Below, in pieces: positions 30,071-48,910 of a stretch of 64,000 nt of DNA. Both the position numbers and the translations under genes were made by a program. The stretch lies in the NCBI GenBank assembly GCA_963847815.1, contig CAWKBF010000001.1:101184-165183 (forward strand), written 5' to 3'. This stretch comes from an uncultured Acidimicrobiia bacterium (GTDB lineage Bacteria > Actinomycetota > Acidimicrobiia > IMCC26256 > JAENVU01). Positions within the stretch are counted from its first letter, which is position 1, and every line of letters begins with the position of its first letter. A model generated the notes under the pieces. That model was not told where the DNA came from and searched no databases. It was given only the letters and a program-made list of their open reading frames with translations.

Positions 30071-30099
30071 GAGGCGGCCTCGGCAGGGACGGGGAGCCA

Positions 30100-30915: not shown

Positions 30916-31759
30916 GATGCGTCCGGCGGAGAGCCGATGTCGAATGCGGTCGGGTTCGGCTGTGGGATGGCTGCAGCGCCGTCGCCGTTGGTCGCGATGT
31001 GTGCGGGCGTCCGATCCGCCGTCGGCGTCGCAACGGTCGACGGAGCTGCACCATTGGTCGCGCTGTCGGTCGGGCCGATCGACGCGGTGCTCCGGTCGGG
31101 AGGAAGACGGTGAACGTGCTGCCCTGCACCGAGCGTCGCTGGCCACCGTGATCTCGCCGCCGAGCAGGCCGACGAGCTCGCGGCTGATCGAGAGGCCGAG
31201 GCCGGTGCCGCCGTAGAGGCGGGCGGTGGTGCCGTCGCCCTGGGCGAACGCCTCGAAGATCCGCAGCTGCTGCTCGTCGTCGATGCCGATGCCGGTGTCG
31301 CTGACCGAGAACGCGACGACCGACCGGCGCCGACGCAGTGACGTCCGTCGTCGGGCTCCAGCCGCCGTCGGCCAGGCCGACCTGCGATGCGGACCTCGCC
31401 GTTCTCGGTGAACTTGAACGCGTTCGCGAGCAGGTTCTTCAGGATCTGGCGGAGCCGTTGGGGGTCGGTGACGATCGTCGGCCGGGCAGTCGCGCGCGAG
31501 GTCGATCGAGAAGTTGAGGCCCTTGGCGAGCGCGACGTGCTCGAACTCGCGGACGAGCCCGTCCCGCAGCTCCTCGATCGAGACGTCGTCACATCTCGAC
31601 GGTGACGGTGCCCGACTCGGCCTTGGCCAGGTCGAGGATGCTGTTGAGCAGCTCGAGCAGCTCGTTGCCCGACGAGTGGATGACGCTCGCGTACTCGACC
31701 TGCGTGTCGGTCATGTTGTGGTCGGGGTTGTCCTCGAGCTGCTCGGCGAGGATCAGCAG

Positions 31760-31798
<39 letters not shown>

Positions 31799-32557
31799 GA
31801 TGAACTCGGACTTGTACTTCGACGAGACCGACGAGCTGGCCGGCCTTCTCCTCGACGAGCCGCTTGGACTCCTCGACCTCGCGGTTCTTGTGCTCGGCCT
31901 CGATGTTCTGCTCGGCGAGCTGCTTGGCCTGGCGGCCGAGGTCCTCGTTGGACTCGCGCAGCTCCTCCTGCTGCGAGCGGAGCTCCTCGGCGAGCGACTG
32001 CGACTGGATGAGCAGGGTCTCGGTGAGCGTGCTGGCCTCGATCGTGCTCATGACACGAGGCCGATGCTCTCGGTGATCGAGTCGAGGAACGCCTGGTGGG
32101 TGACGCTGAACGGCGAGAACGACGCGAGCTCGATCACCGCGCGCACCGATCCCTCGAACAGGACCGGGCAGCACGATGATGTTGAGCGGGCGTCGACGTC
32201 GCCGAGCCCGGAGTTGATCCGCACGTAGTCGCTCGGGCACCTCCGTGAGGAGGATCCGCTTCTTCTCCTTGGCGCACTGGCCGACGAGGCCCTCGCCGAG
32301 CCGGAACGAGGTCGAGAGGTGCTTGCGCTCCTCGTAGCCGTAGCCGGCCTGGAGCTCGAGCATCGGCTCGCCGCCGTCGGTCGACGCTGGTCATCGAGTA
32401 GAAGACCGGCGTGCTGGGCGGAGACGAGCGGCGCGAGCTCGGAGAGGATCATGCTCGACGTCGCCGCGAGGTCGCGCTGGCCCTGGAGCATGCGGGTGAA
32501 GCGCTCCCGGTTCGTCTTCAACCAGTCCTGCTCGACGTTCTCGCGCGTCGTCTCGCG

Positions 32558-33376
32558 GAGGTTGCGGATCATCTCGTTGAGCGTGTCCTTCAGGACCGCG
32601 ACCTCGCCGCTGGCCTCGACGCGCACCTGCCGGGTGAGGTCGCCCTCGGTCACCGCGGTGGCCACCTCGGCGATGGCTCGCACCTGGTTGGTGAGGTTGG
32701 CGGCGAGCTGGTTCACGTTGTCGGTGAGGTCCTTCCAGACCCCGCCGACCTCCTTCGACTGGGCCTGGCCGCCGAGCTTGCCCTCGACGCCCACCTCGCG
32801 CGCGACTCGGGTCACCTCGCCCGCGAACGCGTTGAGCTGGTCGACCATCGCGTTGACGGTGTTCTTCAGCTCGAGGAACTCGCCCTTCACGTCGATCGAG
32901 ATCTTCTTGCTCAGGTCGCCGTTCGCGACCGCGGTCGTGACCTCGGCGATGTTCCGCACCTGGCCGGTCAGGTTGCCGGCCATGAGGTTCACGTTGTCGG
33001 TCAGGTCCTTCCAGACGCCGCCGACCTCGATGGTGACCGCGGCGGCCTGGCCGAGCTTGCCTTCGGTGCCGACCTCGCGCGCGACCCGGGTCACCTCGGA
33101 GATGAACCCGTTGAGCTGGTCGACCATCGCGTTGATCGTGTTCTTCAGCTCGAGCATCTCGCCCCGCACGTCGGCCGACACCTTCTTGCTCAGGTCGCCG
33201 TCGGCGACCGCGCCGATCACGCGCTGCATCTCGATCGTCGGGCGCACGAGGTCGTCGATCAGGCTGTTGACCGACTCGACGCTGTCGGACCAACCCTGCG
33301 TCCAGCCGCCGAGCACCATGCGCTGCGAGAGCTGGCCCTGCTTGCCGACGACCTGGCTCACCCGCGCGAGCTCGGT
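32558..33376 (-). repeat. three in-frame 279-nt (93-aa) di-HAMP units
   Basis: gttgagctggtcgaccatcgcgttga.ggtgttcttcagctcgag recurs at 32831 and 33110. At protein level the units run [15 protein letters not shown]...[13 protein letters not shown]...GDLSKK...[13 protein letters not shown]. Confidence 0.85.
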
Positions 33377-33813
33377 GCCGAGCGCCTGGTTGGCGATGAT
33401 GACGTCGTTGAGCCCGTCGGCGACCTTGCCGGCGACGCCCGTCCAGTCGAGCGGCATGCGGGCGGTGAAGTCGCCGCCCTTGACCTTGGCGAGGACGCTC
33501 AGCAGGACCTTGCGCGTCGACGAGATCGTCGGCGATCAGCGACCGCGGGGTCGGGCATTGCGTGCCTCCAGAATGGAGGACCTGACGTCCAGGCGGGTCC
33601 GCTCGGACATCCGTTCCTCGGAGTCCCATCGGCTCGCCAGAACCGGAAACCTGATGGACGATTGGTGATCGATGATTCCGGCCGGGACGTATGACGGAAA
33701 TGGCGGCTACGTCGCGGTCAAATGCCCGGTGTGGGGGTGACGGTTGGGCGTCACCTGGCGGCGTGCTCGTCCCGCCCTCACGGTTCCATGACGTTCGGGA
33801 GCGACAATGGCGG

Positions 33814-34857: not shown

Positions 34858-35406
34858 TTGACCGAGCCGAAACACTGCGCTCGTACGGTCACGGGCATGT
34901 ATCACCCACCGCTGATCGAACCAGGCACCGATCTCGTCACCGTCGTCGAGGCCGAGAAGTTCCGGATACGGCCGATGACGGTGCGGGACGCGGTCATCGA
35001 CTACGAGGCCGTCGCCGGGAGCCCGACCGAGCTCGGCACCGCGTTCGGCGACCCGGACGCGGTGCCGATGCCGTACACGTTCGAGCAGGAGATGATCGAG
35101 GTCGGGTGGCACCAGAAGGAGTTCCAGATGGGCTTCTCCTTCTGCTTCATCGTGACCTCGCTCGACGAGGAGCGGAGCTACGGCAACGTCTACGTGTTCC
35201 CCGCGACGCGCGGCGACTACGACGCCGAGGTCTACACGTGGGTCACGAAGGACGTGCTCGACAGTGGCCTCGGTGAGGAGCTGTTCGAGGTCGCGCACAA
35301 GTGGATCGTCGACAGCTGGCCCTTCGAGAACGTCGCGTACCCGGGCCGCGAGATCGATTGGGAGACCTGGGAATCGCTGAAGTCCGAACGGGAGGAAGCC
35401 GCGTGA
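34858..35406 (+). CDS. GNAT-like N-acetyltransferase (tentative)
   Basis: Intact 182-aa ORF; ATG 34897 is also possible. The pattern FRIRPMTVRDA...GFSFCFIVTSL...GNVYVFP resembles RimJ/RimL-type GNATs. The stop overlaps the next start (GTGA at 35403-35406). Confidence 0.5.
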   Translation: MTEPKHCARTVTGMYHPPLIEPGTDLVTVVEAEKFRIRPMTVRDAVIDYEAVAGSPTELGTAFGDPDAVPMPYTFEQEMIEVGWHQKEFQMGFSFCFIVTSLDEERSYGNVYVFPATRGDYDAEVYTWVTKDVLDSGLGEELFEVAHKWIVDSWPFENVAYPGREIDWETWESLKSEREEAA

Positions 35407-36348
35407 TCACGACGACGAGCAACGGGGTGTCGATCCCGTGCGAGGACGGCACCGTGGTGACCGTGACGCCGATCGGCGGGCTCTTCGGCGCGACCGTCTC
35501 GGGCGTCGATCTCTCGAAGCCGCTCCATCCGTCGGTCGTCGCGGTGATCGACCAGGCGTTCGTCGCCTGGCACGTGCTGCGGTTCCCGGACCAGGACCTC
35601 ACGCCTGCGGACGAGGTGCGGGCCATGGGGTACTTCGACGACGGCGTCTACACCGAGCTCGACGGCGCGGCCGCGATCCCGGAGTAGCCGGCGATCCAGA
35701 TCGTCAGCAACATCGAGGTCGACGGCAAGGCCATCGGGTACACGAACAAGCGCGGCATGGAGTGGCATTCGGACCTGAGTGGCATGCCCGTGATGCCGAA
35801 AGCCTCGATGATGTACGCGATCGAGGTGCCGGAGACGGGGGGCGAGACGTACTTCGCGAACGGTCACCTCGCGTACGAGACGCTGCCCGTCCACGAGCGC
35901 CAGTACCTCGAAGGGCTGCGACTCCACCTACAGCTGGGTCACGCTCCAGAAGTGGCTCGCCGAGGCGAGCGGCACGTGGGAGCCGTACGACGCCGAGACC
36001 GCGGCGAAGTATCCGGACGTGGTGCGCCCACTCGTGCGCGTGCACCCGGTGACGGGTCGCAAGGCGCTCTTCTTCTCGATCGAGGAGATCATCGAGCTGA
36101 CCGGCCTCGACACCAAGGAGACGCGCGCGCTGCTCGAGCGGCTCATCGAGCACATGACGACGACGCCGCACGTCGTGTACCGCCACGACTGGACCGTCGG
36201 CGATCTGCTCGTCTGGGACAACCGGTGCCTGATGCACAGCGTCTGTGAGTACAACTACGAAGGCCAGCGACGGCTGATGCACCAGCTGAACGGCGCGGAC
36301 GACACGTCGGCGGAGCAGACGATCGCGGTGCTCCCGGTCAGCGTGTGA
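35403..36348 (+). pseudogene. TauD/TfdA family Fe(II)/2-oxoglutarate dioxygenase, in-frame TAG plus one frameshift
   Basis: GTG 35403 (VITTTSNGV...). TAG at 35685-35687 interrupts AAIPE*PAIQIVSNIEVDGKAIGYTNKRGMEWHSD in the same frame. A +1 shift near 35915 leads into STYSWVTLQKW...VVRPLVRVHPVTGRKALF...WDNRCLMHS (ORF 36019..36348). Confidence 0.75.
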
Positions 36349-36389
36349 CAAGGTTCGGGACGGGTCTGTTCCAACTCTGACGGATGGCG

Positions 36390-36403
36390 TTACGGCTCCG
36401 TAA
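36390..36403 (+). promoter_or_regulatory. 14-bp palindrome TTACGG-CT-CCGTAA upstream of the Rieske gene (candidate operator)
   Basis: Perfect 6-bp inverted arms in the 154-nt gap before GTG 36503. A second inverted repeat, GCGACAC...GTGTCGC, lies about 40 nt downstream. RBS GAGGAGGA precedes the start. Confidence 0.25.
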
Positions 36404-36502
36404 ACGCTGCCTTCTGACGTTGCTTTCGGGCAACGCGACACCCGAGAGTGGGCTGAGTCGCGTGTCGCACGCGGCGGCGTTCCCACGAGGAGGACCCATA
36501 CC

Positions 36503-37603
36503 GTGACCGGCGTGCTCGACCACAGCGAGGTTTCGGACCGGCCGACCTACCGCCTGCCGCCGGAGGCGTACTTCGAGCCTTCCTGGTACGAGCTCGAGGT
36601 GAAGGAGCTCTTCGGCAAGACCTGGAACCTCGTCGGCCACGAGTCCAACCTCAAGGCGTCCGGCGACTTCATCACCTCGAAGGTCGGTGCCGATCCCGTC
36701 GTCGTGGTGCGCACGCCCGAGGGTGGGTTGAGCGGCTACCTCAACATGTGCCGGCACCGCGGGATGGCGATCGCGTGCGGCTCGGGCAACTGTGGTGACT
36801 CACTGCGCTGCGGCTACCACGGCTGGGAGTTCAGCCTCGACGAAGGCGCGCTCACACGGGTGCCCCAGCGCAAGACCCAGTTCCCCGACATCAACGCGGA
36901 GGCGCTCGGGCTCTACACGGTCGCCGTGGCCACGTGGGGCGGCTTCGTCTTCGTGCACCCCGACCCGACGCAGGCGGACACGTTCGACGAGTGGTTGGGC
37001 GACTTCCCCGAGAAGATGGGGAAGTACCCGTGGGCCGAGCTCGTCGAGGTCGGCACCGAGACCGTGCCGCTCAAGTGCAACTGGAAGCTCTACATCGAGA
37101 ACCACATCGACTGGCTGCACCTCTGGTACCTCCACGAGGCGACCCTCAAGCAGTACGACCACCACGCATCGACCTACGCGACGACCGGTCTGCACTGGTA
37201 CTCGCACGAGACGCTCCGGGACGGCCAGCCGGTGTACGACCCGGCCGGAGTGCGCCCGATCCCCGGCGTCTCCGATGCCGAGGTCAAGACCCTGCGCGCC
37301 AACATGTTCTTCCCGAACGTTCCGGTCGCGACGCTGGGCAACATCGTGCAGACCTATGCGGTCATCCCGACCGGCCCGGAGACGTGCTACCTCGACATCC
37401 GCAGCTACGGGGCTCCGGGGTCGGTCATCACCGACCAGACGCGCGCTGAAGGCCTGGTCGTCCTGCGCGACGAGGACGGGGTGGCGTGTGAGCAGATGCA
37501 GGTGGTGATGCACTCGCCGCGCTTCGAAGTCGGTCCGATCGCGATCGAGCACGAGCGCCCGATCGCCGACTTCCACCGCAACCTGCTGACCTTCCTGAGC
37601 TGA
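36503..37603 (+). CDS. Rieske [2Fe-2S] non-haem iron oxygenase alpha subunit
   Basis: Rieske motif CRHRG...CGYHGW. Catalytic-domain motif CNWKLYIENHIDWLHLWYLH. Intact at 366 aa. Confidence 0.85.
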   Translation: MTGVLDHSEVSDRPTYRLPPEAYFEPSWYELEVKELFGKTWNLVGHESNLKASGDFITSKVGADPVVVVRTPEGGLSGYLNMCRHRGMAIACGSGNCGDSLRCGYHGWEFSLDEGALTRVPQRKTQFPDINAEALGLYTVAVATWGGFVFVHPDPTQADTFDEWLGDFPEKMGKYPWAELVEVGTETVPLKCNWKLYIENHIDWLHLWYLHEATLKQYDHHASTYATTGLHWYSHETLRDGQPVYDPAGVRPIPGVSDAEVKTLRANMFFPNVPVATLGNIVQTYAVIPTGPETCYLDIRSYGAPGSVITDQTRAEGLVVLRDEDGVACEQMQVVMHSPRFEVGPIAIEHERPIADFHRNLLTFLS

Positions 37604-37741
37604 CAGCACGAACGCGCGCGTCTGTTCACGCGTCGGTCATGACGGGTGAACGGGAGGGTCACGTGGGCAACAGGTCCGCGTTACCCGAGGTTCTCTCCAC
37701 CCACACGGCGGGGCAACGCTCGCTTCCTACCTTGACGCTTG

Positions 37742-38597
37742 ATGGCGCGTCGATGGAGCGAGGCAACCTGGCCCGAGCTGACTGACCTCGCCGAATCGCG
37801 CGAGGTCGGCCTGGTTCCGGTCGGCGCGACAGAGCAGCACGGTCCGCACCTCCCGACCGCGACCGACACGATCATCGCCACCGCGATGTGCGAGGCCGCG
37901 AGCGACCTGTGCGGCGCGCCGGTGCTGCCGGCGATCCCGCTCGGCGCCAGCTACGGGCACGGCACCGTGCTGCCGGGCACGATCTCCGCGACGCCCGGAT
38001 CTGCTGGCCGCGATCGTCCGTCAGTACGCGGAGTGGGCGGCCGCATCCGGGCTGACTGCGGCTGCTGTTCGTCAACGCCCACTTCGGCAACTCCGCGTCG
38101 CTCGGCGTCGCGACCGACCACCTTCGGCTGTTCCGGCCGGACCTGCGCGTCGGCGTCGTCGAGTGGTGGTCGCTGGACCCGCTCGTCGCGCGCCGAGATG
38201 ATCGCCGACGGCGACGACCTGCACGCCAACCGCGGCGAGACGTCGGTGATGCTCGCGGTCGCGCCCGAGCTCGTCGACCACGACGAGATGATGCGCGCCG
38301 ACGACCCGGACCGCACTGCGGACCTGGTGTTCCGCTACACCGCGCCGAGCCTCTCGACCAACGGCGTGACGGGGCGGCCGTCGGAAGCCACGCCGGAGCT
38401 GGGTCGCATGCTCCTCGAGCGGACCGCCGACGCGCTCGCCGGGATGGTCGAGCGCGGTCGGGTCGAGGAGCCGCCGCTCGGACCGGCGCCCTTTCCCACG
38501 CTCACCATGCCGCCGGCCGTCGCGCCCACCACGCCGCGCGGCACCCGACACGAACCGCCAGAACGCAAACGGGCAGACCACCACCGGGAGGAACTGA
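37742..38597 (+). pseudogene. creatininase-family amidohydrolase, at least 3 frame changes, C-terminus unresolved
   Basis: MARRWSEATWPELTD...VGATEQHGPHLP. The expected middle (DLLAAIVRQYAEWAAASGL / LLFVNAHFGNSASLGVATDHLRLFRPDLRVGVVEWW) lies in the other two frames between about 37997, 38060 and 38192. The net shift is 3 nt, so ORF 37739..39157 stays open. The only nearby stop is TGA 38595-38597 in another frame. Confidence 0.65.
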
Positions 38598-39966
38598 TGG
38601 ACACCGTCCAGGACGTCACCGAAGAGCACCGCAAGCTCGCCGCGGACCTGGGTGCGCAGGGGGTCGAGTACGTGGTCGGCGCCTACGTCGACATCCTCGG
38701 GCGCTCGAAGTCCAAGGTCGTCCCGATCGAGCACCTGCCGAACCTGCTCGCGGGCTCGGAGCGGTACACGCCGCGGGGCATCGGCGACCTCGGGCAGATG
38801 ACGCCCAACGAAGACGAGTGCGTCGCGATGCCGGACCTTTCGACGTTGCGGATCATGCCGTGGGACCGGCGGTTCGCGTGGATGGCCGCCGACCTCCTCT
38901 TCGGTGGCACCGAGCCGTTCGCGCACTGCACCCGCTCCGTCCTCAAGCGCGAGGTCGACCGTGCCGCGGGCCTCGGCTTCGGGTTCAACCTCGGGGTCGA
39001 GACCGAGATCTACGCGTACAAGCCGGATGCGATCGAGCGCGACCGGCTACCTCGGCCCGATGGCGCCGAGCGGCTCGATGAAGCCGACGCCCGCCTACGA
39101 CGTCGAGGCGACGATGGACGCGATGCCGTTCCTCGGCCCGATGGTCGAAGGCGATGAACGAGACCGGGTTCGGAGTCTTCAGCTTCGACCACGAAGGTGG
39201 CGACGCGCAGTTCGAGTTCGACTTCGACTTCGCGCCCGCACTCGAGATGGCGGACAAGATCACGTTCTTCCGGCTGATGGCGAAGCAGATCGCCAAGCAG
39301 AACGACCTCGCGGTCACCTTCATGCCGAAGCCGTACACCGAGGCGTGGGGCTCGGGCCACCACTTCAACATGAGCCTCGTCGATCTCGAGTCGGGGCAGA
39401 ACCTCTTCCGTGACGCTGACGGCCCTCGCGGCTGGAGCAAGACGTGTTACTCGTTCCTGGCCGGGATCCTGAAGCACTCCGCCGCGATCGCGGCGATCGC
39501 GACTCCGACGGTCAACTCGTACAAGCGGATGGTGCCGCGGCTCGCGGACGGGTGCATCTCGTGGGCGCCGGTGTGGGCTGCGTACGGCGACAACAACCGT
39601 TCGTGCATGCTCCGCCTGCCGCACAACCGGCCTGCGATCGAGAACCGCGCGGTGGACTCCGCCGCGAACACGTACCTCGCGTCGGCGTTCATGCTCGCCG
39701 CGGGGCTCGAAGGGATGGCAGACAGCCTCGATCCCGGCGAGCCGATCGAGGACATGACCTACGACTGGTCGAAGCGCAGTGACGGGGTGCGCCTGCCGCG
39801 CAACCTGCTCGAGGCGATCGACGCGTTCGAGGCCGACCCACTCACCCACGAGGTCTTCTCGCCGCAGTTCGTGAGCGCGTACACCGAGATGAAGAACGAC
39901 GAATGGCAGCTGTACCACTCGCAGGTCAGTGAGTGGGAGCGCGAGCACTACCTGAGCCTCTTCTGA
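38597..39966 (+). pseudogene. glutamine synthetase-like gamma-glutamyl ligase, 2 frameshifts
   Basis: ATG 38597 follows GGGAGGA. MDTVQDVTEEHRKLAADLGAQGVEYVVGAYVDILGRSK... Then +1 at 39044 (GAC C GGC) into GYLGPMAPSGSMKPTPAYDVEATMDAMPF, and +1 at 39150 into ORF 39154..39966 (MNETGFGVFSFDHEGG...NSYKRMVP...). Confidence 0.75.
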
Positions 39967-40640
39967 TGTTGGTCGGCCTGGTGATCGGCCGGTATCCACC
40001 GGACCGATTCTCGATGCACCGCGGCTACATCGATGCGCTGTGCGCGCTCGGGGTCACGCCGCTGATCGTGCCGGCCGGTGGTCCGGTCGGGCACGCGGTC
40101 GCCGCCGAGCTGCTCGAACGGTGCGACGCGCTGATCGCGACCGGCGGTGGTGACCTCGAGCCGTCGACCTACGGCGCGGAGTCGTCGGGTGACCTGATGG
40201 AGACCGACGCGGGTCGCGATGCGATCGACCTGTGGGCGGTGCGCGACTTCCACTCGCGGGGGCGTCCAGTCCTCGGCATCTGTCGCGGTGCGCAGACGCT
40301 CGCGATCGCGATGGGCGGCACGCTCGTCCAGGATCTCCCCACGGCCGGGATCCACGGGCACTGGGACGAGGAGCGCCAGTACGAGCCGGTGCACGGGATC
40401 GAAGCGGACCCGGGCTCGTGTGCCGCCGATGCGCTCGCCGGGGTGACCGAGGTGAACTCGATCCACCATCAGGCGATCGCCACCCTGGGTCCGGACCTGC
40501 GGGCGACCGCGTGGAGCCCCGACGGAGTGATCGAGGCTGCGGAGGCGCCGGGAGTGCTCGCCTTGCAGTGGCACCCCGAACGCCTGCTGCAGCACGACCC
40601 GCGCCACCTCGCGCCGTTCGAATGGCTGGTGAAGGCATGA
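39966..40640 (+). CDS. class I glutamine amidotransferase-like peptidase C26 (gamma-glutamyl-amine hydrolase, PuuD-like)
   Basis: The ATG overlaps the GS-like stop (TGATG). Nucleophile GICRGAQ, plus SIHHQAI and LQWHPE motifs. Confidence 0.8.
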   Translation: MLVGLVIGRYPPDRFSMHRGYIDALCALGVTPLIVPAGGPVGHAVAAELLERCDALIATGGGDLEPSTYGAESSGDLMETDAGRDAIDLWAVRDFHSRGRPVLGICRGAQTLAIAMGGTLVQDLPTAGIHGHWDEERQYEPVHGIEADPGSCAADALAGVTEVNSIHHQAIATLGPDLRATAWSPDGVIEAAEAPGVLALQWHPERLLQHDPRHLAPFEWLVKA

Positions 40641-41423
40641 GTCCCCGCAGCGGTCGGGTCGCCGTGATCACCGGCGGCGGGCGCGGCCTCGGGCGGGGGA
40701 TCGCGATTGCCCTCGCGGATGCGGGCCACGACCTGGTGATCGGTTGGAACCGCGACGCGGTGTCGGCGGCCGAGACCGCCGACGCGGTCCGGTCGCGGGG
40801 GCGTGAGGTCGAGCTGGTCTTCGGAGACGTGGCCGAGGTCCAGACCGCGAAGGTGCTCGTGGAGGCCGCGGTCACGGGGCTCGGCGGGCTCGATGTGTGG
40901 GTGAACAACGCAGGTGTCTCGATGATCGCGCCGGTGCTCGAGACACCGGCGAGCGAGATGGAGCGCATGCTCTCGGTCAACGTCATCGGCACGCTGCACG
41001 GGATGCAGACCGCGGCGCTGACGATGCTCGAGCGCCGGAGTGGGGGTCGCGTCATCAACCTCGCGTCGGATGCAGGCCTCCAGGGGTTCCCGAACCTCGG
41101 TGGCTACGCCGCGACGAAGTTCGCGGTCGTCGCGCTGACCCAGACGGCCGCGCTCGAGCTGGCCCGCGACGGCATCACCGTCAACGCGGTGTGCCCCGGC
41201 ACCGCCGAGACCGCGATGAACCACGCCGAGTGGAAGGCGGAGCGGTCGATCTCCGGCCTGACCATTGACGACGTCCGCCAGAGCTACCTCGCGCAGATCC
41301 CGGCGGGCCGGTTCTGCACCCCCGAGGACGTCGGCGCCGCGGTCGCGTACCTGGCCGGCCCGGGCGCGGTCCTTCGTCACCGGGCAGTCCATCTGCGTCA
41401 ACGGCGGAACGGTCCTCCATTGA
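40637..41423 (+). pseudogene. SDR family oxidoreductase, one frameshift near the 3' end
   Basis: ATGA overlap with the upstream gene. VITGGGRGLGRG Rossmann motif and YAATKFAV catalytic motif. A +1 shift at about 41369 (GCG G TCC) restores the canonical C-terminus SFVTGQSICVNGGTVLH, with stop at 41421-41423. Confidence 0.75.
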
Positions 41424-41460
41424 CGACTCGCCAACGACACCACCTGGGAAGGGAGCACCC

Positions 41461-42093
41461 ATGCGCCAACCGATGATCGTCGATCGACCCGCATTGATCG
41501 TGGTCGACATGCAGAAGGGGGGCGGCCTTCCGCTCGACGAGGTCGGCATCCCCGTGATGCCCGGCTACGAGGAACAGGTGCCGCGCGCGGTCGCCATGGT
41601 GGAAGCCGCGCGCGCGGCCGGGATCCCGGTGATCTTCTTCCAGGAGGTCCACCGGCGCAGCCTGATCGACTTCGGTCGCGAGCTCGACGGCGTCGAGACC
41701 ATCCATGGGCTCGACGGCGACCGGGCGACCGAGCTCGACGACCGTCTGCTGCCGCAACCCGGTGACGACCACATCGTCAAGCGGCGCTACTCGGGCTTCT
41801 TCGGCACCGAGCTCGACATCCTCCTGAAGGGCCTGGGCGTCAGCACGTTGGTGCTGATCGGTGGCCTCACCGATGTGTGCGTCCACTACACGTTCGTCGA
41901 CGGCCATCAGCGGGACTTCTACATGCGTGTCGTCGAGGACTGCGTCCTCGGGTCGTCGCAACCCGCACACGACGCGTCACTCAACGCGATGGAGTATCTG
42001 CAGGCCGGCGCCCGTCGCACGACAGACGAGGTGCTCGAAGCGTTCTCCGCGCACGCTGAGCTGCTCGGCGCGCCGGTCGAGGTGCCGGCGTGA
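41461..42093 (+). CDS. isochorismatase-family cysteine hydrolase
   Basis: ALIVVDMQKG, KRRYSGFFGT, and catalytic Cys in GGLTDVCVHYT. RBS GGGAAGGGAG upstream. Confidence 0.85.
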   Translation: MRQPMIVDRPALIVVDMQKGGGLPLDEVGIPVMPGYEEQVPRAVAMVEAARAAGIPVIFFQEVHRRSLIDFGRELDGVETIHGLDGDRATELDDRLLPQPGDDHIVKRRYSGFFGTELDILLKGLGVSTLVLIGGLTDVCVHYTFVDGHQRDFYMRVVEDCVLGSSQPAHDASLNAMEYLQAGARRTTDEVLEAFSAHAELLGAPVEVPA

Positions 42094-43760
42094 TGACCGG
42101 TCGCACCGATCAACCCACGCCAGTCCAACCCCAACCAGGAGGTCCAGTGCCCACTGTGAGAACCCAACATTCGAAGGCCCGTCGACTCAGGATCTTCGCC
42201 CTGTTCGCGGTGCTCGCCATCGTTGCGGCGGCGTGTGGCGGCACCGACGACAACAGCTCGTCGTCCGGTGGGAGCTCGGGTGGCTCCTCGACGACGTTGC
42301 GCACCGCGTTCGTGACCGACATGCAGGTCCCGGACCCGGACATCTTCTACGAGACCGAAGGCAACCAGGTGGTGATGTCCACCTACGAAGGACTCGTCCG
42401 CTACAAGCAGGACCCGCCGTCCAACGAGATCGAAGGGCTGCTCGCGACGAGTTGGGAGAAGTCTCCCGACGGGCTCAAGTACACCTTCACCCTGCGCCCG
42501 AACGTGAAGTTCTTCGACGGCACCGACTTCAACTCGGAGGCGCTGAAGACGAGCTTCGAACGGCGTACCGCGGTGGACCAGGGTCCGGCGTACATGCTCG
42601 CCGAGGTGGCGTCGTACGAGACGCCGGATCCGCTCACGTTCGTGGTCAACCTGAAGCGGCCGGTGTCTGCGTTCATGGACTACATGGCCGCTCCGTACGG
42701 ACCGAAGGCGATCAGCCCGACCGCGTACGCGGCGCACAAGGGTGACGACCTCGGCCAGAAGTACCTGTCAACGCACAGCATCGGGACCGCGCCGTACATG
42801 ATCACGGACTTCGTGCTGGGTCAGAAGTACGTGCTCGGCACGAACCCGAACTACTGGGGTGACAAGCCGAAGCTGAAGACGATCAACATGGACATCGTTC
42901 CCGACCTGTCGACCCAGCAGCTCAAGCTCGAGGGTGGCGACCTGGACATCCTGCACAACCTGCCGGCGAGCACCACGAACTCGTTCAAGGGCAAGAGCGG
43001 GTTCCAGGTGATCGACATCGAGTCGCTGCAGATGCAGGTGCTCAAGGTCAACCCGAACAAGCCGCCGTTCAACGACAAGTCCTTGCGGGTCAAGATGCGA
43101 GCGGCGATCGACAAGAAGAAGATGACCCAGGAGATCTTCGGTGACCTCGGGAAGGTCTCGGAGTCCATGGTGCCGCTCGGGCAGCTGCCCGAGCTGCCGG
43201 GTGGGAAGGACGTGTGGGACTACGACCCGGCACCGCTGAAGGCGGCCGTCTCTTCGCTGCCGAGTGGATCGAAGTCGATCACGATCGCGTACTCCACCGG
43301 TCAGGTGAACGACCAGCGGACCGCCGAGTCGATCCAGCAGGTCCTCTCGGATGCGGGCTTCAGCGTGAAGGTCCTGTCGTTGCCGATCGCGCAGATCTTC
43401 GCCTTGCGGGACCAACCCCAGAGTGATGTGCCGAACCTGCTGGTGGAGACCGCGAACCCGGATGCGGCACAGCAGGACACCTACCAGCGGATCTTCTACA
43501 ACACCGGTGGGTTCCTCAACTACCTGAAGGGCGGTACGCCGGAGGCGGACGCGGAGATGGACCGTGGTCTCTACACGAATGACGACGCAGTCATCGCCGA
43601 CGCCTACAGCAAGGCCGCCGACCTCCTGTTCGCCGACGCGACGTTCATCACCACCGCCGACGTGAAGGGGACGTTCGTGGCCACCGACAAGCTGAGTGGG
43701 TGGACCAGCACCGCAGCTGCACCGGTGAGCCTCAACTTCCAGGCGGCAACGCTGAAGTAG
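42090..43760 (+). CDS. ABC transporter substrate-binding lipoprotein, family 5 (peptide/opine/nickel type)
   Basis: Lipobox AIVAAACGG. 556 aa with family-5 SBP features. The start overlaps the upstream stop (GTGATG). Confidence 0.85.
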   Translation: MMTGRTDQPTPVQPQPGGPVPTVRTQHSKARRLRIFALFAVLAIVAAACGGTDDNSSSSGGSSGGSSTTLRTAFVTDMQVPDPDIFYETEGNQVVMSTYEGLVRYKQDPPSNEIEGLLATSWEKSPDGLKYTFTLRPNVKFFDGTDFNSEALKTSFERRTAVDQGPAYMLAEVASYETPDPLTFVVNLKRPVSAFMDYMAAPYGPKAISPTAYAAHKGDDLGQKYLSTHSIGTAPYMITDFVLGQKYVLGTNPNYWGDKPKLKTINMDIVPDLSTQQLKLEGGDLDILHNLPASTTNSFKGKSGFQVIDIESLQMQVLKVNPNKPPFNDKSLRVKMRAAIDKKKMTQEIFGDLGKVSESMVPLGQLPELPGGKDVWDYDPAPLKAAVSSLPSGSKSITIAYSTGQVNDQRTAESIQQVLSDAGFSVKVLSLPIAQIFALRDQPQSDVPNLLVETANPDAAQQDTYQRIFYNTGGFLNYLKGGTPEADAEMDRGLYTNDDAVIADAYSKAADLLFADATFITTADVKGTFVATDKLSGWTSTAAAPVSLNFQAATLK

Positions 43761-43788
43761 CGCAAGGGTCTCTCGCCGGAGGCGAGCT

Positions 43789-43822
43789 GGTGGGGCTACC
43801 GGATGGAGTCGGTGGCCCCACC
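43789..43822 (+). terminator. hairpin after the binding-protein gene
   Basis: GGTGGGGC (43789-43796) pairs with GCCCCACC (43815-43822). It is preceded by a second small hairpin, CTCGCC-GGA-GGCGAG (43772-43786). No U-tract. Confidence 0.25.
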
Positions 43823-43923
43823 ACTCACGCGCCGGAGGGCGAAAGGTTCCGCGCAGACGCGGTTCATCGCGTTGTCGACGCACACGAAACCGAGTCGCAA
43901 CGGTCGACTCGTACGGTCAGACG

Positions 43924-44586
43924 ATGCTGACCGAACCTGAAGCCATGGTGGACACGTTCTCGCCGTCGTTCGAGCTCCCGGTCCCGGCCTACGAGGGCCG
44001 AGCGGTGTCGGTGGCGAAGGGGACCATGATCCGCATCACCGATGTGCAGGGTCACCAGATCGGCGACATGTTCGCGTTCGTGCGCGACAAGCCGTCGGAG
44101 TGGCTCAGTGCCGGGGCGTGCCGCACCGCGCACACGCGGTTGTTCCCGGAAGTCGGTACCGCATTCATGACGCAGTACCTGCGACCGATCCTGACGCTCG
44201 TCGCCGACACGTCGCCGGGTGTGCACGACATGCTCTACCCACCGTGCTCACCCGCCCAGTACAAGCTGGCGGGGGTTGTTGGCCACCACCCGAGCTGTCG
44301 CGAGAACTTCGAGATCGCCGCGGTCAGCGCGGGCATGCCGACCGACTTCGTGCCCGAGCCGGTGAACCTCTTCCAGAACACGCCACCCGATGCGGACGGC
44401 GTGCTCGTCATCGGCCCTGCTGCGTCCTCGGCCGGCGACTACGTGCTCCTGCGCGCCGAGATGGACATCGTCCTCGTGCTCACCGCGTGCAGCTACGACA
44501 TCGGCGACGCCAACGGCGACGAGTGCACCGACCTCCTGATCGAGCTCGACTCGAAACCCCTCGGCGTCGGCCAGCTCGACGACTAA
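43924..44586 (+). CDS. DUF1989 (urea-carboxylase-associated) family protein, third paralogue
   Basis: 220 aa. The patterns IRITDVQGHQIGDMFAF...DMLYPPCSP...LFQNTPPD resemble the DUF1989 proteins at 61.6-63.0 kb. Confidence 0.75.
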   Translation: MLTEPEAMVDTFSPSFELPVPAYEGRAVSVAKGTMIRITDVQGHQIGDMFAFVRDKPSEWLSAGACRTAHTRLFPEVGTAFMTQYLRPILTLVADTSPGVHDMLYPPCSPAQYKLAGVVGHHPSCRENFEIAAVSAGMPTDFVPEPVNLFQNTPPDADGVLVIGPAASSAGDYVLLRAEMDIVLVLTACSYDIGDANGDECTDLLIELDSKPLGVGQLDD

Positions 44587-44850: not shown

Positions 44851-47009
44851 TCAAGCGTGGTGGCAGGCGACGACGTTTCCTTCGGGCTTCGCCACGAGCA
44901 CCGGAGACTTCTCGAGGCAGATCTCAGTCACCCGAGGACACCGCGGCGCAAACGTGCACCCGACCTTGACCCCGATCGCGCTCGGCGGCTCACCCGCGAG
45001 CGTGGGGGAGAGGCGACCCGGCTCGGTCGTCGGGCTCGCGTCGATCAGCCCCTGGGTGTACGGGTGCTCCGGGTTCTCGAACAGCTTGTCGGCCGGCGCC
45101 TGTTCGACGATGCGGCCCAGGTACATCACTGCGACCTCGTCTGCGATGCGCCGGGCTGCCGCGAGGTCATGGGTCACGACGAGGAGTGCGACACCGAGGT
45201 CGTCTCGTAGCGACTCGAGCAACGTGAGCACGCGTACGGCGAGCGAGGCGTCGAGCGCGCTCACCGGCTCGTCGCACACGAGGAGCTTGGGCTCGGACGC
45301 GAGGGCGCGGGCGATGACTGCACGTTGGCGCTGACCCCCGGAGAGGTCACGCGGGCTTCGAACGCGCGGCGCGCCGGTCCAGACCCACCCGGTCCAGGTA
45401 GTCCATCGCCCGCCGTTCGCGCTCGGCCTTGTTGACGCCGAGGGCACGGAGGCGCTCCTCGACCTGCAGCCCGATCGCCATCCAGGGTGTGAGCGAGCTG
45501 CCGGCATCCTGGAAGACGAGCTGCGGGCGCCCACCTGTCGGTGCCCAGGCAACCTGACCCTCATCGGGCTGCAGCAAGCCGGTCGCAATTCGTAGCGTCG
45601 TCGTCTTCCCGCACCCACTCTCACCGACGAGCGCGACGGAGCCGCGAGTCGGGACCCGCAGGGAGACGTCGTCGACGGCGAGCAGCTTCGAGTTCTCGCC
45701 GCGCCCGCCGACCGGGAACGTCTTGGTGACGTGGTTCAGCTCGAGTGCGATCCCGGTGATGCTCATTGTGTCCTTGGACGGAGGCAGCATCGACACAGGG
45801 ATCGTGGGCGCGGAGACCGTGATGGTGACCGGGGTGTTCGCCACGGTCATCGGGTGCAGGCAGGCGACGCCACCGAGCAGACCGTCGGGTCGCGCCAAGA
45901 GCTCCGGCGGAGCCACCTCGCAGTCCTCCTCGGCGCGTGAGCATCGCGGTGCGAACGCGCAACCGGGCGGCAACGCCATCGGGTTCGGCGGGTTGCCCGG
46001 CATCGGGTCGCTGGCGGCCGTCACCCCGTCGACCGAGAGGCGAGCCGCAAGCAGTGCCTTCGTGTACGGGTGCGACGGCGCTTCGAGCACGCTCGCGGCC
46101 GGTCCTGATTCACAGACCCGACCTGCGTACAGCACGACGATCCGGTCGGCGATCGAAGCGGCGACGCCGAGGTCGTGGGTCACGAGCAGCACTGCGCAGC
46201 CGTGCTCGCGGCGCAGACGGTCGAAGAGGAGCACGACCTGCGCCTGAACGCTCACGTCGAGCGCGGTCGTCGGCTCGTCGGCGATCAGCAACCGCGGCGC
46301 CGCCGTGATCGTCCTTCGCGACGCCGACGGGGAAGTCGAGCACCGCGGCGTCAGTGGTGAGATCGAGGACCGCACCGTTCCCGTTGGTCGTCGTGCCGCT
46401 CGTCTCGGCTTCGTGCTTACGGCGTCCGAACCGGGAGCGCTTCTCGGGCTTCGCGGCGTCGAGCGTCCCGTGACCGCCCAGGGCCATCGCGATCATCACG
46501 CGCTGACGGAGACCGCCGGAGAGCTGGTGCGGGTACTGGTTCATGCGCTTCTCGGGGTCCGGCACACCGGCCTCGGCGAGCTGGCGCAGGGCCCGGTCTT
46601 TGTCGATGCCGCGCTCGAGGAGCTGGCGGCCGATCTTCATCGTCGGGTTCAACGACGTGAGCGGGTCCTGGAAGACCGCGCCGAGCAGCTCCTGGCGGAC
46701 CTTGCGGCGCGTCCTATCGCCGCCGTTCACCATGTCGACGCCCGCGACCTCGACGTGACCGCTCGTCTCCGGTCGACCGCTTGCGGGAAGGAGTCCGAGC
46801 AGCGACATCCCGAGCACGCTCTTGCCCGACCCGGACTCGCCGACGAGTGCCACCACCTCGCCGGCGCGGATGTCCAGGTTCACGCCGCGCAGCGCGCGCA
46901 CGATGCCGTCGCCGGCCTTGAACGAGACGTGCAGATCCTGAACGCTGGCGACGACTTCGGAGTCCAACGTGGCCGGATCCATGATTGGTGGGGTCTCGGT
47001 GAGACTCAC
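44851..47009 (-). pseudogene. fused tandem ABC ATPase (DppD-DppF type), 2 frameshifts
   Basis: First half: Walker A GESGSGKS, signature LSGGLRQR, Walker B LLIADEPT. Second half: GESGCGKT, LSGGQRQR, LLVCDEPV. There is no stop between the halves. Frame junctions lie near 46300-46320 and 45349 (GCG T GAC). Each half ends in a 4-Cys motif. Confidence 0.75.
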
Positions 47010-48037
47010 TAGGCCATCCTCACCTTCTTCTCGACGCGTTGCTCAGTGCGAAGACGGGGGTCGGCGACGAGCTGGAGGATGTCGACGACCGCATTGATGA
47101 CGACGTACGCGATCCCGAGCACAAGGGTGATCCCGATGATCGCCGGGAAGTCCGCCTGCTGGATCGATTGGTTCGTGTACAGCCCGAGACCGGGCCACGC
47201 GAAGACGAGCTCGATGACGACGACCCCCGCGAGCAGCAGACCGACCTGGAGGCCCGCCATCGAGAGTGCCGGACCGGACGCGTTGCGCAACGCGTGCTTC
47301 CACACGACCATGCGCTCCGAGAGCCCCTTGGCGCGAGCGGTGCGCACGTGGTCCTGGCGCATGACGTCGAGCAGGGAGCTGCGCAGCACCCGGCCGATGG
47401 CGACGGCCGGGCCCAGTGCGAGCACGAAGGCGGGCAGCAGGAGGTGTCGCACGGCGTCCCACCATTGCTGCGGGTTGCCGTGGAGCAGGGAGTCGAGGAG
47501 CAGGAAGCCCGTCGGGCCCGTGTCGTTGTATTGCGAGCTCATCCGACCGGACGCGGGCAACCAGTTCAGGTTCCGGTAGAAGAGCAGGATCAGGAGGATG
47601 GCGCCGAAGAACGCGGGTGCCGACGACAGGAACATCATCGTCACCCGCGCGGTGCCGGATCCTCGTCCGCCGTGCGCGGACCAGAGCCCGAGGATGATGC
47701 CGAGGACGCCGGCGAGAAACGCGGCGGTGAACGCGAGCTCCAGGGTCGCGGGCGCGAACTTCGAGATGTCCTCGAGGACCGGGCGCCGGGTCCGGAGGGA
47801 TTCACCGAAGTCGCCCTGCACGACCTTGCTCAGGAAGCTGACGTACTGCGTGGGCAGCGGATCGTTGTAGCCGAGCTCCTGGCGCTTCGCCTCGACGACT
47901 TCCGCGCTCGCCTGCGCGCCGACGGACGCGCGCACCGGGTCCGCCGGGAGGACTGCGGCGATGATGAAGACGACGAGGGTCAGGACCATGAGCACTGCGA
48001 GCAGCGACCCGATTCGGACCAGGATCATGCGGCGCAT
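47009..48037 (-). CDS. ABC transporter permease (DppB-like)
   Basis: Intact 342-aa ORF (MRRMILVRIGSLLAVL...) with typical binding-protein-dependent transport inner-membrane component features. The start overlaps the upstream stop. Confidence 0.85.
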   Translation of the reverse strand: MRRMILVRIGSLLAVLMVLTLVVFIIAAVLPADPVRASVGAQASAEVVEAKRQELGYNDPLPTQYVSFLSKVVQGDFGESLRTRRPVLEDISKFAPATLELAFTAAFLAGVLGIILGLWSAHGGRGSGTARVTMMFLSSAPAFFGAILLILLFYRNLNWLPASGRMSSQYNDTGPTGFLLLDSLLHGNPQQWWDAVRHLLLPAFVLALGPAVAIGRVLRSSLLDVMRQDHVRTARAKGLSERMVVWKHALRNASGPALSMAGLQVGLLLAGVVVIELVFAWPGLGLYTNQSIQQADFPAIIGITLVLGIAYVVINAVVDILQLVADPRLRTEQRVEKKVRMA

Positions 48038-48910
48038 CAGCCCTCCACAACATCTCGGACGGCGTCACCGGCAAGGTTGCCGACGAACGCAAGGATGAAC
48101 ACACCGAGCGCCGGGAACACCGGCACCCACCACGAGGTGAACAGGTAGGAGAGGCCTCGGGAGGACATCGCGCCGAGCTCGCGCGGCCGGTGGAGGAGAG
48201 CCGAGGCCGAGGAACGAGAGTCCGGCGAGGGTGAGCAGCAGCGCGCCGATGTCGAGTGAGGCCGTGACGAGGATCGCGCCGAACGTTCCCGGCACGACGT
48301 GCTTGAACGCGACGCGCAATCGACTCGCGCCGCCCATGCGCGCCGCTTCCACGTGACTTCTGGACGCGATCGACTTCACCTCGCCGCGCACGATCCGTGC
48401 GTAGAACGGCCACCAGACGATCGCGACCGCGATGAGCGTGTGCTGCAGGGTCGGGCCGAGTGCGGAGACGACGGCGAGCACCAGCAACGGACCGGGCATC
48501 GACAGGAACACGTCGGTGATGCGCATCAACACGTTGTCGATCCAACCGCCGCTCATCCCGGCGATCAGGCCGATCGTCCCGCCGATGAGGATGCCCGAGG
48601 CGATGACGAGGAAGGCCGAGAACCAGCTCGTCCGCATGGCGAGCAGGGTGCGACTGAACACGTCACGGCTCTGCTCGTCGATGCCGAACCAGTGTTGACC
48701 CGACACTCCGGTGAACGAGCGCCCGACGCTGTCGGTCTCTCCGTACGGCACGATGAGCGGGACGAAGATCAGGAAGACGGTCAGCAGCAGGAACGCGGTG
48801 ATCGCGACCAGCTCGAGCTTGCCGAGTCGCCGGAGCTTGCCGCTGAGCACGGCGGTGCTCGGCATCGACGGCCACCAGCGGCGCCGCAGCGGCGGTGAGA
48901 TGACGGCCAT
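48037..48910 (-). pseudogene. ABC transporter permease (DppC-like), one frameshift near the 3' end
   Basis: ORF 48065..48910 is canonical up to LSFLGLGSPPPA. A +1 shift near 48187 restores PRELGAMSSRGLSYLFTSWWVPVFPALGVFILAFVGNLAGDAVRDVVEG, with the stop at 48037-48039 overlapping the next ATG. Confidence 0.75.

Follow-up and report, generated by a model that had tools for sequence, protein, structure and literature searches.

A glutamine synthetase-like ligase and a creatininase-like hydrolase as the predicted core of a putative guanidine-linked nitrogen-scavenging island in Acidimicrobiia

The window analysed in the present work, a stretch of 64,000 nucleotides from an uncultured Acidimicrobiia bacterium (contig CAWKBF010000001.1), contains a cluster of ten genes in which a glutamine synthetase (GS)-like ligase and a creatininase-like hydrolase stand side by side with oxygenases, further hydrolases and a transporter protein, and it raises the question of which compound these proteins act upon. 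The initial annotation of this cluster considered that the substrate could not be read from the sequence. This holds for the window alone, but it does not hold when the window is compared with related genomes, where Guanidine-I riboswitches and enzymes for guanidine, urea and methylguanidine are found around the orthologous genes; guanidino compounds, which had been named among the candidate substrates, were the right direction. Our overall reading, including the working model described below, is that the ten genes make up one arm of a nitrogen-scavenging island of about 28 kb for free guanidine and alkyl-guanidines, and we give it a probability of about 0.55. The broader part of this reading, viz. 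that the island is guanidine-linked and scavenges nitrogen from guanidine or alkyl-guanidines, is considered highly probable because of the riboswitches, the carboxylase pathway, the homologues of MgdL and MgdH, and the nearby genes for urease, ureohydrolase and allantoin metabolism.

The G+C content of the window (64-71%) makes raw lists of open reading frames (ORFs) noisy, and genes were therefore called from third-position G+C, Pfam and NCBIfam scans, and tblastn searches with intact orthologues. By these means the ten genes were found on the plus strand at 34858-44586, in the order in which they had been annotated:

34897-35406, plus strand: GNAT-like small protein (the ORF opens with TTG at 34858; the ATG at 34897 agrees with the orthologues)
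35403-36348, plus strand: TauD/TfdA-family Fe(II)/2-oxoglutarate dioxygenase (Pfam TauD on two fragments)
36503-37603, plus strand: Rieske non-haem-iron oxygenase alpha subunit, intact (Pfam Rieske and Ring_hydroxyl_A)
37739-38596, plus strand: creatininase-family metal amidohydrolase (Pfam Creatininase, 147 bits)
38597-39966, plus strand: GS-family ligase of a GmaS-related clade (Pfam Gln-synt_C, 276 bits)
39966-40640, plus strand: Peptidase_C26 / class-I GATase-type gamma-glutamyl hydrolase (Pfam, 169 bits)
40637-41423, plus strand: short-chain dehydrogenase/reductase (SDR; Pfam adh_short, 168 bits)
41461-42093, plus strand: isochorismatase-like cysteine hydrolase (Pfam, 133 bits)
42090-43760, plus strand: family-5 solute-binding protein (SBP5; Pfam SBP_bac_5, 231 bits) of a Dpp/Nik-type ATP-binding cassette (ABC) transporter
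43924-44586, plus strand: stand-alone DUF1989 protein (Pfam, 158 bits)

Four overlap junctions that had been taken as signs of translational coupling were confirmed letter for letter, viz. GTGA at 35403 (GNAT-like stop and TauD start), TGATG at 39964 (GS-like stop and C26 start), ATGA at 40637 (C26 stop and SDR start), and GTGATG at 42090 (between the isochorismatase-like and SBP5 genes). Judging from the genome comparison, this gene set is far from a chance arrangement, because the same set recurs in dozens of other genomes.

Our analyses of related loci (numbered L001 to L082) have identified riboswitches of the Guanidine-I family in front of orthologues of these genes. The first four were found with Rfam in four loci, directly upstream of the GS-like gene in each case; a covariance model built from these four aptamers led to further loci, and the matches were then checked at the Rfam gathering score. 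In total, 28 Guanidine-I aptamers are present in 26 related loci, with scores of 64-98 bits that all lie above the Rfam gathering score, and no competing Rfam family was found at the aptamer sites; an additional match, in L035, was made by our own covariance model alone. Eighteen of the 28 aptamers are located directly 5' of the GS-like gene, and two are 5' of a creatininase-like gene followed by the GS-like gene. The remainder precede the series isochorismatase-like, SBP5 and GS-like (2/28), the series mgdL-like, mgdH, creatininase-like and GS-like (2/28), or the ABC ATPase gene (4/28). The nucleotides that contact guanidinium separate subtype 1 of this riboswitch from the ppGpp (guanosine tetraphosphate) and PRPP (phosphoribosyl pyrophosphate) variants (PMC5340920), and upon comparison with that work the ligand-contacting nucleotides of subtype 1 (CACGG, GGGAG, and CCGAGAG) are present in the aptamers. 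A characterised Guanidine-I aptamer rejects methylguanidine, and the switch senses free guanidine.

Two of these loci are informative with regard to how the genes may be controlled. In L021 (aptamer at 9854-9955), the sequence AGCCCGG, which forms the 3' arm of P3, can alternatively pair with a CCGGGCT further downstream, behind which come T6, a Shine-Dalgarno sequence and the ATG of the GS-like gene; as judged from the sequence, this layout is the classic arrangement of an ON-switch. In L053, the aptamer (8950-9048) precedes only the creatininase-like and GS-like genes, with a Kelch-repeat protein and a RecD-like helicase encoded on the flanks, and in this locus the predicted guanidine-induced unit is the creatininase-like/GS-like pair alone. 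In other Actinomycetota, expression of the orthologues is predicted to be turned on through riboswitches of this family.

Conservation of the cluster reaches far outside this genome. For the GS-like protein, after frame correction, more than 120 clusters of homologues were found (67-91% identity), mostly from metagenome-assembled genomes (MAGs) of Acidimicrobiia/Acidimicrobiales. A one-genome-per-species scan yielded 80 loci, and 82 loci with a homologue of the GS-like gene, mostly from soil Acidimicrobiia MAGs, were labelled by tblastn with reference proteins; the gene order is repeated on these contigs. Many of the contigs are short and the counts of neighbours are accordingly lower bounds: a creatininase-like gene, nearly always adjoining the GS-like gene, is present in 63 of the 82 loci, and the other neighbours encode an ABC ATPase (56 loci), SBP5 (52), C26 (51), a Rieske oxygenase (41), a metallo-beta-lactamase-fold (MBL) hydrolase (36), SDR (36), an HRI1-like (MgdL-like) protein (29), the isochorismatase-like protein (27), allophanate hydrolase (26), an arginase-family ureohydrolase (25), urea/guanidine carboxylase (24), a TetR regulator (22), DUF1989 (18), urease (4), TauD (4), and the GNAT-like protein (4). 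On these counts, the predicted core of the system is the creatininase-like/GS-like pair (63/82), and the TauD and GNAT-like genes (each 4/82) are evidently rare, lineage-specific accessories. The genes that surround the orthologues include those for urease, ureohydrolase, allantoin metabolism, guanidine carboxylase, CgdAB-type DUF1989 proteins and allophanate hydrolase, and this association with guanidine and urea genes spans several orders of Actinomycetota.

The limits originally assigned to the cluster (34858-44586) take in only about half of the island. A convergent, mostly minus-strand module of the same system, in which several genes are frame-broken, occupies 44854-63098, and the feature is, on our gene calls, an island of about 28 kb (34.9-63.1 kb) rather than one of 9.7 kb. 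The convergent module consists of the following genes:

44854-47009, minus strand: double ABC ATPase of the Dpp/Nik type, split over three frames
47009-48037, minus strand: ABC permease PermB
48040-48985, minus strand: ABC permease PermC, with one frameshift near 48180
49215-50138, minus strand: second TauD-family dioxygenase, intact (Pfam, 178 bits)
50174-51800, minus strand: second family-5 solute-binding protein (tblastn, Pfam)
52681-53475, minus strand: MBL hydrolase, forming a divergent pair with the next gene (pair also present in L001)
53625-54392, plus strand: MBL hydrolase, partner in the divergent pair
54481-55065, minus strand: predicted MgdL homologue (Pfam HRI1, 40 bits)
55068-56105, minus strand: second Rieske oxygenase, in several frames, directly upstream of the MgdL-like gene
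56266-57868, minus strand: allophanate hydrolase with frame lesions (Pfam Amidase and AH_C)
57973-61578, minus strand: urea/guanidine carboxylase (NCBIfam urea-carboxylase model TIGR02712, 1767.6 bits; passes the cut-off of 1303.85)
61597-62130, minus strand: second DUF1989 protein, seen by tblastn alone, in damaged sequence
62187-63098, minus strand: DUF1989 protein of the carboxyguanidine-deiminase type (UAAP1, 267.9 bits; passes the cut-off of 205.95)

The allophanate hydrolase fragment reaches 445 bits against an NCBIfam cut-off of 487, and the Rieske oxygenase of the ten-gene arm (36503-37603) is a paralogue of that which precedes the MgdL-like gene. UAAP-type DUF1989 genes commonly serve as the genomic proxy for a carboxylase that prefers guanidine over urea (Schneider et al. 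2020, as cited in later work).

A further connection with guanidine comes from the enzymes of methylguanidine breakdown. Sinn et al. 2025 (PMC12508155) have described MgdH, a 2-oxoglutarate dioxygenase that hydroxylates methylguanidine, and MgdL, a beta-barrel protein in which Asp49 and Arg51 are catalytic and which splits the stable hemiaminal product into guanidine and formaldehyde. With the MgdL sequence taken from the supplementary alignment of that work as the query, several HRI1-like proteins of the related loci were matched, and the BLASTP match with the HRI1-like protein of the window was weak (E=0.011). Comparison of the two families by hhalign gave a probability of 99.25% (E=5.4e-20) over 145 columns, and the Asp-x-Arg motif (Asp49/Arg51 of MgdL, corresponding to Asp40/Arg42 in the window protein) is invariant in 12 proteins. 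The protein encoded at 54481-55065 is thus a predicted homologue of the N-(hydroxymethyl)guanidine lyase MgdL; as the direct match is weak, the assignment depends upon the profile-profile comparison and the intermediate sequences.

MgdH of Vreelandella boliviensis is a DIOX_N/2OG-FeII_Oxy protein, and orthologues of it (56-65% identical) were found only in L025, L034, L058, and L069. These loci, which belong to Frankiales- and Pseudonocardiales-type MAGs, share the order riboswitch, mgdL-like, mgdH, creatininase-like, GS-like, riboswitch, ABC genes (7202-11616 in L025), with urease genes upstream in L025 and L069. The window gave no tblastn match to MgdH, and a Rieske gene occupies the place beside the MgdL homologue; in most Acidimicrobiia loci, as in the window, the MgdL homologue is preceded by a Rieske oxygenase. 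This suggests that the Rieske oxygenase may be a non-orthologous replacement of MgdH as the hydroxylase. The TauD proteins were also considered as orthologues of MgdH, but this was rejected as MgdH is of a different fold family.

The GS-like ligase had been compared with those of the putrescine (Puu), aniline and GlnA2-4 pathways. By its closest relatives it is not of these types: the nearest proteins of solved structure are the glutamate-methylamine ligases 9QUR and 7CQL (272-291 bits), and the intact orthologue P0010 scores 435.7 bits with the GmaS model TIGR03105, below the cut-off of 469.6, whereas the score with the PuuA model (GGputSyn, NCBIfam; 218.6 bits) is far below its cut-off of 650. 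For an alignment in the numbering and with the residue roles of RhGmaS (7CQL; PMC7948447), 77 ligase ORFs from the related loci were combined with the frame-corrected protein of the window, and the two GmaS proteins of solved structure served as references. Tyr147, Glu179, Glu186, Trp300, Arg312, Arg317, and Lys30' are kept throughout, and Asp177 is kept in all but four divergent rows. In contrast, Gln175 and Asn188, which belong to the methylamine pocket and are present in both solved GmaS proteins, are replaced in the GS-like family by Ser (76/77 rows) and Asp (74/77 rows), respectively, and Trp189 and Ala48' by Phe and Thr (75/77 rows each). The altered pocket is predicted to be roomier and more acidic than that of GmaS. 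Because the catalytic residues are kept and four pocket positions differ, the GS-like protein is in all likelihood catalytically active as a ligase, joining glutamate to a cationic amine that is neither methylamine nor ammonia. A role as a true glutamine synthetase was rejected, since the flap carries Trp, as in GmaS, in place of the glutamate of the Glu-flap, and an equivalent of Asp50' is absent, again as in GmaS. The pairing of the ligase with an adjacent C26 hydrolase, on which the initial annotation was built, is present, and the catalytic residues are intact in the orthologues.

The partner of the ligase was described as a creatininase-type ring amidase, a description which its residues do not support. 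True creatininase cleaves a cyclic acyl-guanidine. The creatininase-like protein keeps Glu34, His36, Asp45, His120, and His178 of the Pseudomonas putida enzyme (the metal ligands and His178), whereas Tyr121 is replaced by Phe, Glu122 by Gly, and Trp174 is absent; its score with the creatininase model TIGR04448 is 106.9 bits against a cut-off of 235, and that with MftE is higher (134.9 bits against 172), both being below the cut-offs. By these features it is not a true creatininase.

Based upon these observations, the following working model is proposed. The family-5 ABC system would import the substrate (import of nickel is an alternative), and the Rieske and TauD oxygenases would hydroxylate N-alkyl groups on substituted guanidines, from which the MgdL-like lyase would release guanidine and an aldehyde. 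Guanidine would then be degraded by the carboxylase route. In a parallel branch, the GmaS-like ligase, with ATP, would couple the gamma-carboxyl group of glutamate to guanidine, or to a closely related derivative, giving an acyl-guanidine, and the creatininase-like enzyme would hydrolyse this adduct to glutamine and urea, or to gamma-glutamylurea and ammonia, with the C26 hydrolase restoring glutamate. The SDR, the isochorismatase-like and MBL hydrolases, and the Tdm-like DUF1989 protein may act upon side products or related nitrogen-rich compounds.

The gamma-glutamyl-guanidine chemistry assigned to the core pair is put forward tentatively. It is proposed because the pair alone is riboswitch-controlled in L053, true creatininase cleaves an acyl-guanidine, and the pocket of the ligase appears enlarged and more acidic than that of GmaS; in addition, an ATP-dependent N-acylation followed by hydrolysis mirrors the logic of the carboxylase/CgdAB route, viz. 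carboxylation followed by deimination. It is rather doubtful that both halves of the proposal hold together, i.e. that the pair, with C26, constitutes a third route of guanidine breakdown and that Rieske oxygenases have replaced MgdH in association with MgdL-type lyases.

A number of observations weigh against this model. No riboswitch was detected in the window, either at the Rfam gathering score or at E values up to 5, and none in its closest relatives L001-L018; for this genome, the connection with guanidine is consequently carried by orthology and by the neighbouring carboxylase and MgdL-like genes. The substrate, the product and the bond cleaved are all deduced from sequence comparison. 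Attack at the acyl carbon, as in creatininase, or hydrolysis of the adduct by C26 would regenerate guanidine in a futile cycle. Guanidinium, with a pKa of ~13.6, is poorly suited as the nucleophile in a reaction of the GS type. Most of the loci already hold a complete guanidine route (carboxylase, CgdAB and allophanate hydrolase, or ureohydrolase and urease), and a second route is therefore not required. Mycolicibacterium homologues of the ligase carry the same pocket signature in the absence of a creatininase-like gene, and the SDR, isochorismatase-like, MBL, TauD, GNAT-like and Tdm-like DUF1989 proteins are without a firmly assigned role.

With regard to the regulation of the window itself, several of the loci L001-L018 carry, in place of the aptamer, a TetR gene that resembles the AmtR-type regulators accompanying actinobacterial carboxylase operons. 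A minus-strand match of our own riboswitch model at 25904-26004 (19 bits, E ~0.008) lies inside an ORF and is unseen by Rfam; it is most likely due to chance. Upstream of the cluster, minus-strand genes at 26779-33457 encode a HAMP/GAF protein (32048-33457), a 722-aa ORF (30195-32363), and a hybrid kinase/receiver protein (27129-28796); a response regulator and a kinase are likewise found upstream of the cluster in L001. Such sensor and regulator genes might stand in for the riboswitch.

Another explanation is the capture of small amines, in which the GmaS-type ligase would take up methylamine or another small amine released from alkyl-guanidines by a ureohydrolase, the creatininase-like enzyme or an amidase, after which the Rieske/MgdL-like pair or the SDR would oxidise the gamma-glutamyl amide and C26 would free glutamate. 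The closeness of the ligase to the glutamate-methylamine ligases, with its near-cut-off TIGR03105 score (435.7 vs. 469.6) and the retained GmaS catalytic residues, fits this explanation, as do the ureohydrolase genes in 25 loci and the action of the neighbouring MgdH and MgdL on methylated guanidines. However, the two pocket residues Gln175 and Asn188 are replaced almost invariantly, the minimal riboswitch-controlled unit consists of the creatininase-like and GS-like genes (L053), and the switch senses free guanidine, a characterised aptamer of this family rejecting methylguanidine. Further, the window and its closest relatives are without a ureohydrolase, and N-methylglutamate synthase/dehydrogenase was seen neither among the Pfam-scanned genes of the window nor among the recurrent neighbours in the 82 loci, although no queries specific for it were made. 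Capture of small amines is considered unlikely.

It is still less likely that the cluster serves the catabolism of creatinine, creatine or a similar N-heterocycle that feeds the guanidine route. The creatininase-like enzyme would here open creatinine or a similar cyclic acyl-guanidine, TauD or Rieske oxygenases would cleave the resulting guanidino acid to methylguanidine, which a Rieske oxygenase and MgdL would convert to guanidine, the isochorismatase-like protein would be an N-carbamoylsarcosine-type amidase, and the GS-like, C26 and SDR proteins would process the amine by-product. Membership in the creatininase family, the N-carbamoylsarcosine amidases among the best solved relatives of the isochorismatase-like protein, the known formation of methylguanidine from creatinine, and the oxygenases, carboxylase pathway and MgdL homologue present in the window agree with such a scheme. 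The low creatininase score (106.9 vs. 235, with MftE scoring better) and the missing Glu122, Tyr121, and Trp174 of the creatinine site argue against it; neither creatinase nor sarcosine oxidase was seen among the neighbours, and the scheme leaves no role for the GS-like gene, although no other gene is as closely tied to the creatininase-like gene and the riboswitch.

An explanation of a different kind is that this genome carries no more than a decaying, non-functional remnant of the cluster. Frame lesions had been reported in four of the ten genes, and they are present in the sequence, in the TauD, creatininase-like, GS-like and SDR genes. The TauD gene, which is ~70% identical to the intact orthologues of L001 and L004 across two frames, contains an in-frame TAG at 35686-35688 where the orthologues have Tyr or Phe (TAC to TAG) and a frameshift between 35887 and 35915. 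Upon alignment to L001, the creatininase-like gene has ~65 codons out of frame as a result of two shifts; its frame runs without a stop into the GS-like ATG at 38597, with a TGA overlapping this ATG one frame off, which suggests one more indel at 38540-38600, a fusion of the two genes being less likely. Two shifts interrupt the GS-like gene, near 39040-39067 and 39146-39154, and one near 41368 in the SDR gene places the C-terminus of the SDR in another frame. At least seven lesions in the four genes, one of them a nonsense codon, together with further lesions in the convergent module and the location of the indels away from long homopolymers, could be taken as signs of pseudogenisation.

Nevertheless, the distribution of the lesions speaks for a technical origin. 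Split genes, i.e. genes in adjacent same-strand pieces, were counted across the related loci: 29 loci of a single MAG project ("MFD", long-read, with contigs up to megabases) contain 65 such events within 370 kb of matched coding DNA, as compared with 2 in 456 kb in 53 loci of other MAGs and isolate genomes. The window, with 11 events, resembles the "MFD" loci (e.g. L082, L076, L069, L052), and apparent frame breaks also occur elsewhere in it. The broken genes (85% identity to orthologues for the C-terminal part of the GS-like protein, 76-85% for the ATPase) are not more diverged than the intact ones (69% for the Rieske protein, to L001, and 65% for the isochorismatase-like protein). Since the split-gene pattern follows one MAG project and the broken genes are not more diverged, the lesions are probably consensus errors of long-read assembly, and real decay of the cluster appears improbable.

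A Puu-, isopropylamine (Ipu)- or aniline-type pathway for an ordinary or aromatic amine, to which the guanidine genes would be mere neighbours, is very improbable: GS-like, C26, SDR and Rieske genes do stand side by side with overlapping stops and starts, but 18 loci have a riboswitch directly before the GS-like gene and a further 2 have one before the pair, the PuuA score is 218.6 against a cut-off of 650, the analogy drawn with the Rieske pairing of the aniline system fails as the window has alpha-type Rieske genes and no beta subunit or reductase among its Pfam-scanned genes, and the association with guanidine and urea genes extends across several orders of Actinomycetota.

The island may be compared with several known systems. 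Described guanidine degradation (2025 reviews; PMC12508155) comprises a Ni-dependent hydrolase, the carboxylase/CgdAB route, and the demethylation step catalysed by MgdHL. The most similar arrangement is the V. boliviensis operon (PMC12508155), with which the window shares an ABC importer, a CgdAB-type DUF1989 protein, guanidine carboxylase, allophanate hydrolase, and an MgdL homologue with the Asp-x-Arg motif; Guanidine-I riboswitches and true MgdH orthologues (56-65% identity) are shared by the related loci only. The window differs from this operon in that its lyase homologue lies behind a Rieske oxygenase and not a DIOX_N/2OG-FeII_Oxy enzyme, its transporter is of the Dpp/Nik type (family 5) and not of the NMT1 type, a riboswitch is absent, and GS-like, creatininase-like, C26, SDR, isochorismatase-like, MBL, TauD and Tdm-like DUF1989 proteins are added. 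The route of GdmH, the Ni-dependent guanidine hydrolase, has its counterpart in type-B related loci, where arginase-family genes are part of the same riboswitch-controlled operon, whereas the window has no gene of this family.

In the gamma-glutamylation pathways (Puu, Ipu, Atd/Tdn/Npa, and GlnA2-4), a GS-family ligase and a C26 gamma-glutamyl hydrolase likewise stand alongside oxidising enzymes. The window ligase is not a PuuA equivalog, the two-subunit Rieske dioxygenase with reductase of the Atd/Tdn/Npa arylamine systems is lacking, and the constant partner of the ligase is a creatininase-family hydrolase, which is found in none of those pathways; in the related loci, moreover, a guanidine-sensing riboswitch stands over the genes. 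The genes beside GmaS are also different, viz. guanidine and urea genes and a creatininase-like hydrolase in place of N-methylglutamate synthase/dehydrogenase. With creatinine degradation, the island shares the Pfam creatininase and isochorismatase-like families, and the bond that creatininase cuts in an acyl-guanidine is of the type proposed here. Both proteins are, however, far below the equivalog cut-offs, the three creatinine-site residues are not conserved, and creatinase, N-methylhydantoinase and sarcosine oxidase were not seen.

The combination of genes had been considered to match no described pathway, and in agreement with this, none with this gene set was found in the literature covered, which left most subscription journals outside. 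Full-text searches gave no paper in which guanidine riboswitches are linked to proteins of the creatininase family or to GS-like proteins, and none in which gamma-glutamylguanidine is mentioned. What appears to be new is a conserved ligase/hydrolase module inside guanidine-utilisation gene clusters, which are themselves of a known kind.

Guanidine has only lately been accepted as a real metabolite and nitrogen source, and abundant soil Acidimicrobiia and other Actinomycetota have placed an uncharacterised ligase/hydrolase pair under a guanidine-sensing RNA, together with an ABC transporter of the peptide/nickel type, Rieske oxygenases and several more hydrolases. Should guanidine be the substrate of the pair, this would represent a new enzymatic logic, viz. 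gamma-glutamyl activation of the guanidinium group, and a new function for both the GS and the creatininase families. Whatever its chemistry, this is a defined two-gene unit with a known inducer that is directly testable in vitro, and it bears on the recycling in soil of nitrogen from urine-, plant- and fertiliser-derived guanidines and from metformin-related pollutants.

For the remaining proteins of the ten-gene arm, comparisons with solved structures (Rieske, TauD, isochorismatase-like, SBP5, creatininase-like and DUF1989 proteins) gave distant relatives only, none of which indicates a substrate. The gene annotated as GNAT-like is present, and its family is weakly supported: the window protein has no Pfam match, its orthologue in L001 matches Acetyltransf_3 below the cut-off (E=1.1e-4; 23.3 bits vs. 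25.4), no protein of solved structure was matched by a profile built from five orthologues, and in some sources the homologues bear the name GNAT or RimJ/RimL. The isochorismatase-like protein scores 81.8 bits with RutB (cut-off 378) and 59.2 with BiuH (cut-off 370) in NCBIfam, both far under, and its best solved relatives, the N-carbamoylsarcosine amidases among them, reach 54-74 bits; it appears no closer to one of N-carbamoylsarcosine amidase, RutB and biuret hydrolase than to the others, and is a member of none of these groups. The DUF1989 protein at 43924-44586 scores 96.3 bits with Tdm, 80.3 with UAAP2 (cut-off 284.7), and 69.0 with UAAP1 (cut-off 205.95), all below the cut-offs, and is predicted to be neither CgdA nor CgdB, being closer to the catalytic domain of trimethylamine N-oxide demethylase. 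The nearest named relatives of the SBP5 protein at 42090-43760 are nickel-binding NikA proteins (152 bits vs. a cut-off of 393).

Some additional features of the related loci were also observed. In L001 (13907-17844) and L003, the genes for the permeases and the ATPase lie behind SBP5 and in its orientation, whereas in the window they are inverted, which may reflect either a real inversion or a misassembly. Arginase-family ureohydrolase genes of two subfamilies lie 3' of the ABC permease genes in the riboswitch-controlled operon of the 25 loci that possess them (e.g. L019, L021, L030, L037 near 16850-17930, and L054 at 8212-9162), sometimes beside urease; they may encode hydrolases of guanidine or alkyl-guanidines. 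Matches to the Rfam family "5' ureB sRNA" inside the urease gene regions of L033 (4967-5257) and L025 (3462-3751) probably reflect conservation of the urease coding sequence. Lastly, a variant of the system occurs in cultured species of Mycolicibacterium, Mycobacterium and Nocardia (L056-L066), where a GS-like gene (57-58% identical, with the same pocket signature) is accompanied by C26 and an NCS1 permease; a creatininase-like gene is absent, and some of these loci carry a distant MgdH paralogue (~31-33% identical). Carriers of the GS-like/C26 variant include Mycolicibacterium komossense DSM 44078, M. iranicum DSM 45541 and Nocardia testacea NBRC 100365. These cultured actinomycetes are possible experimental hosts.

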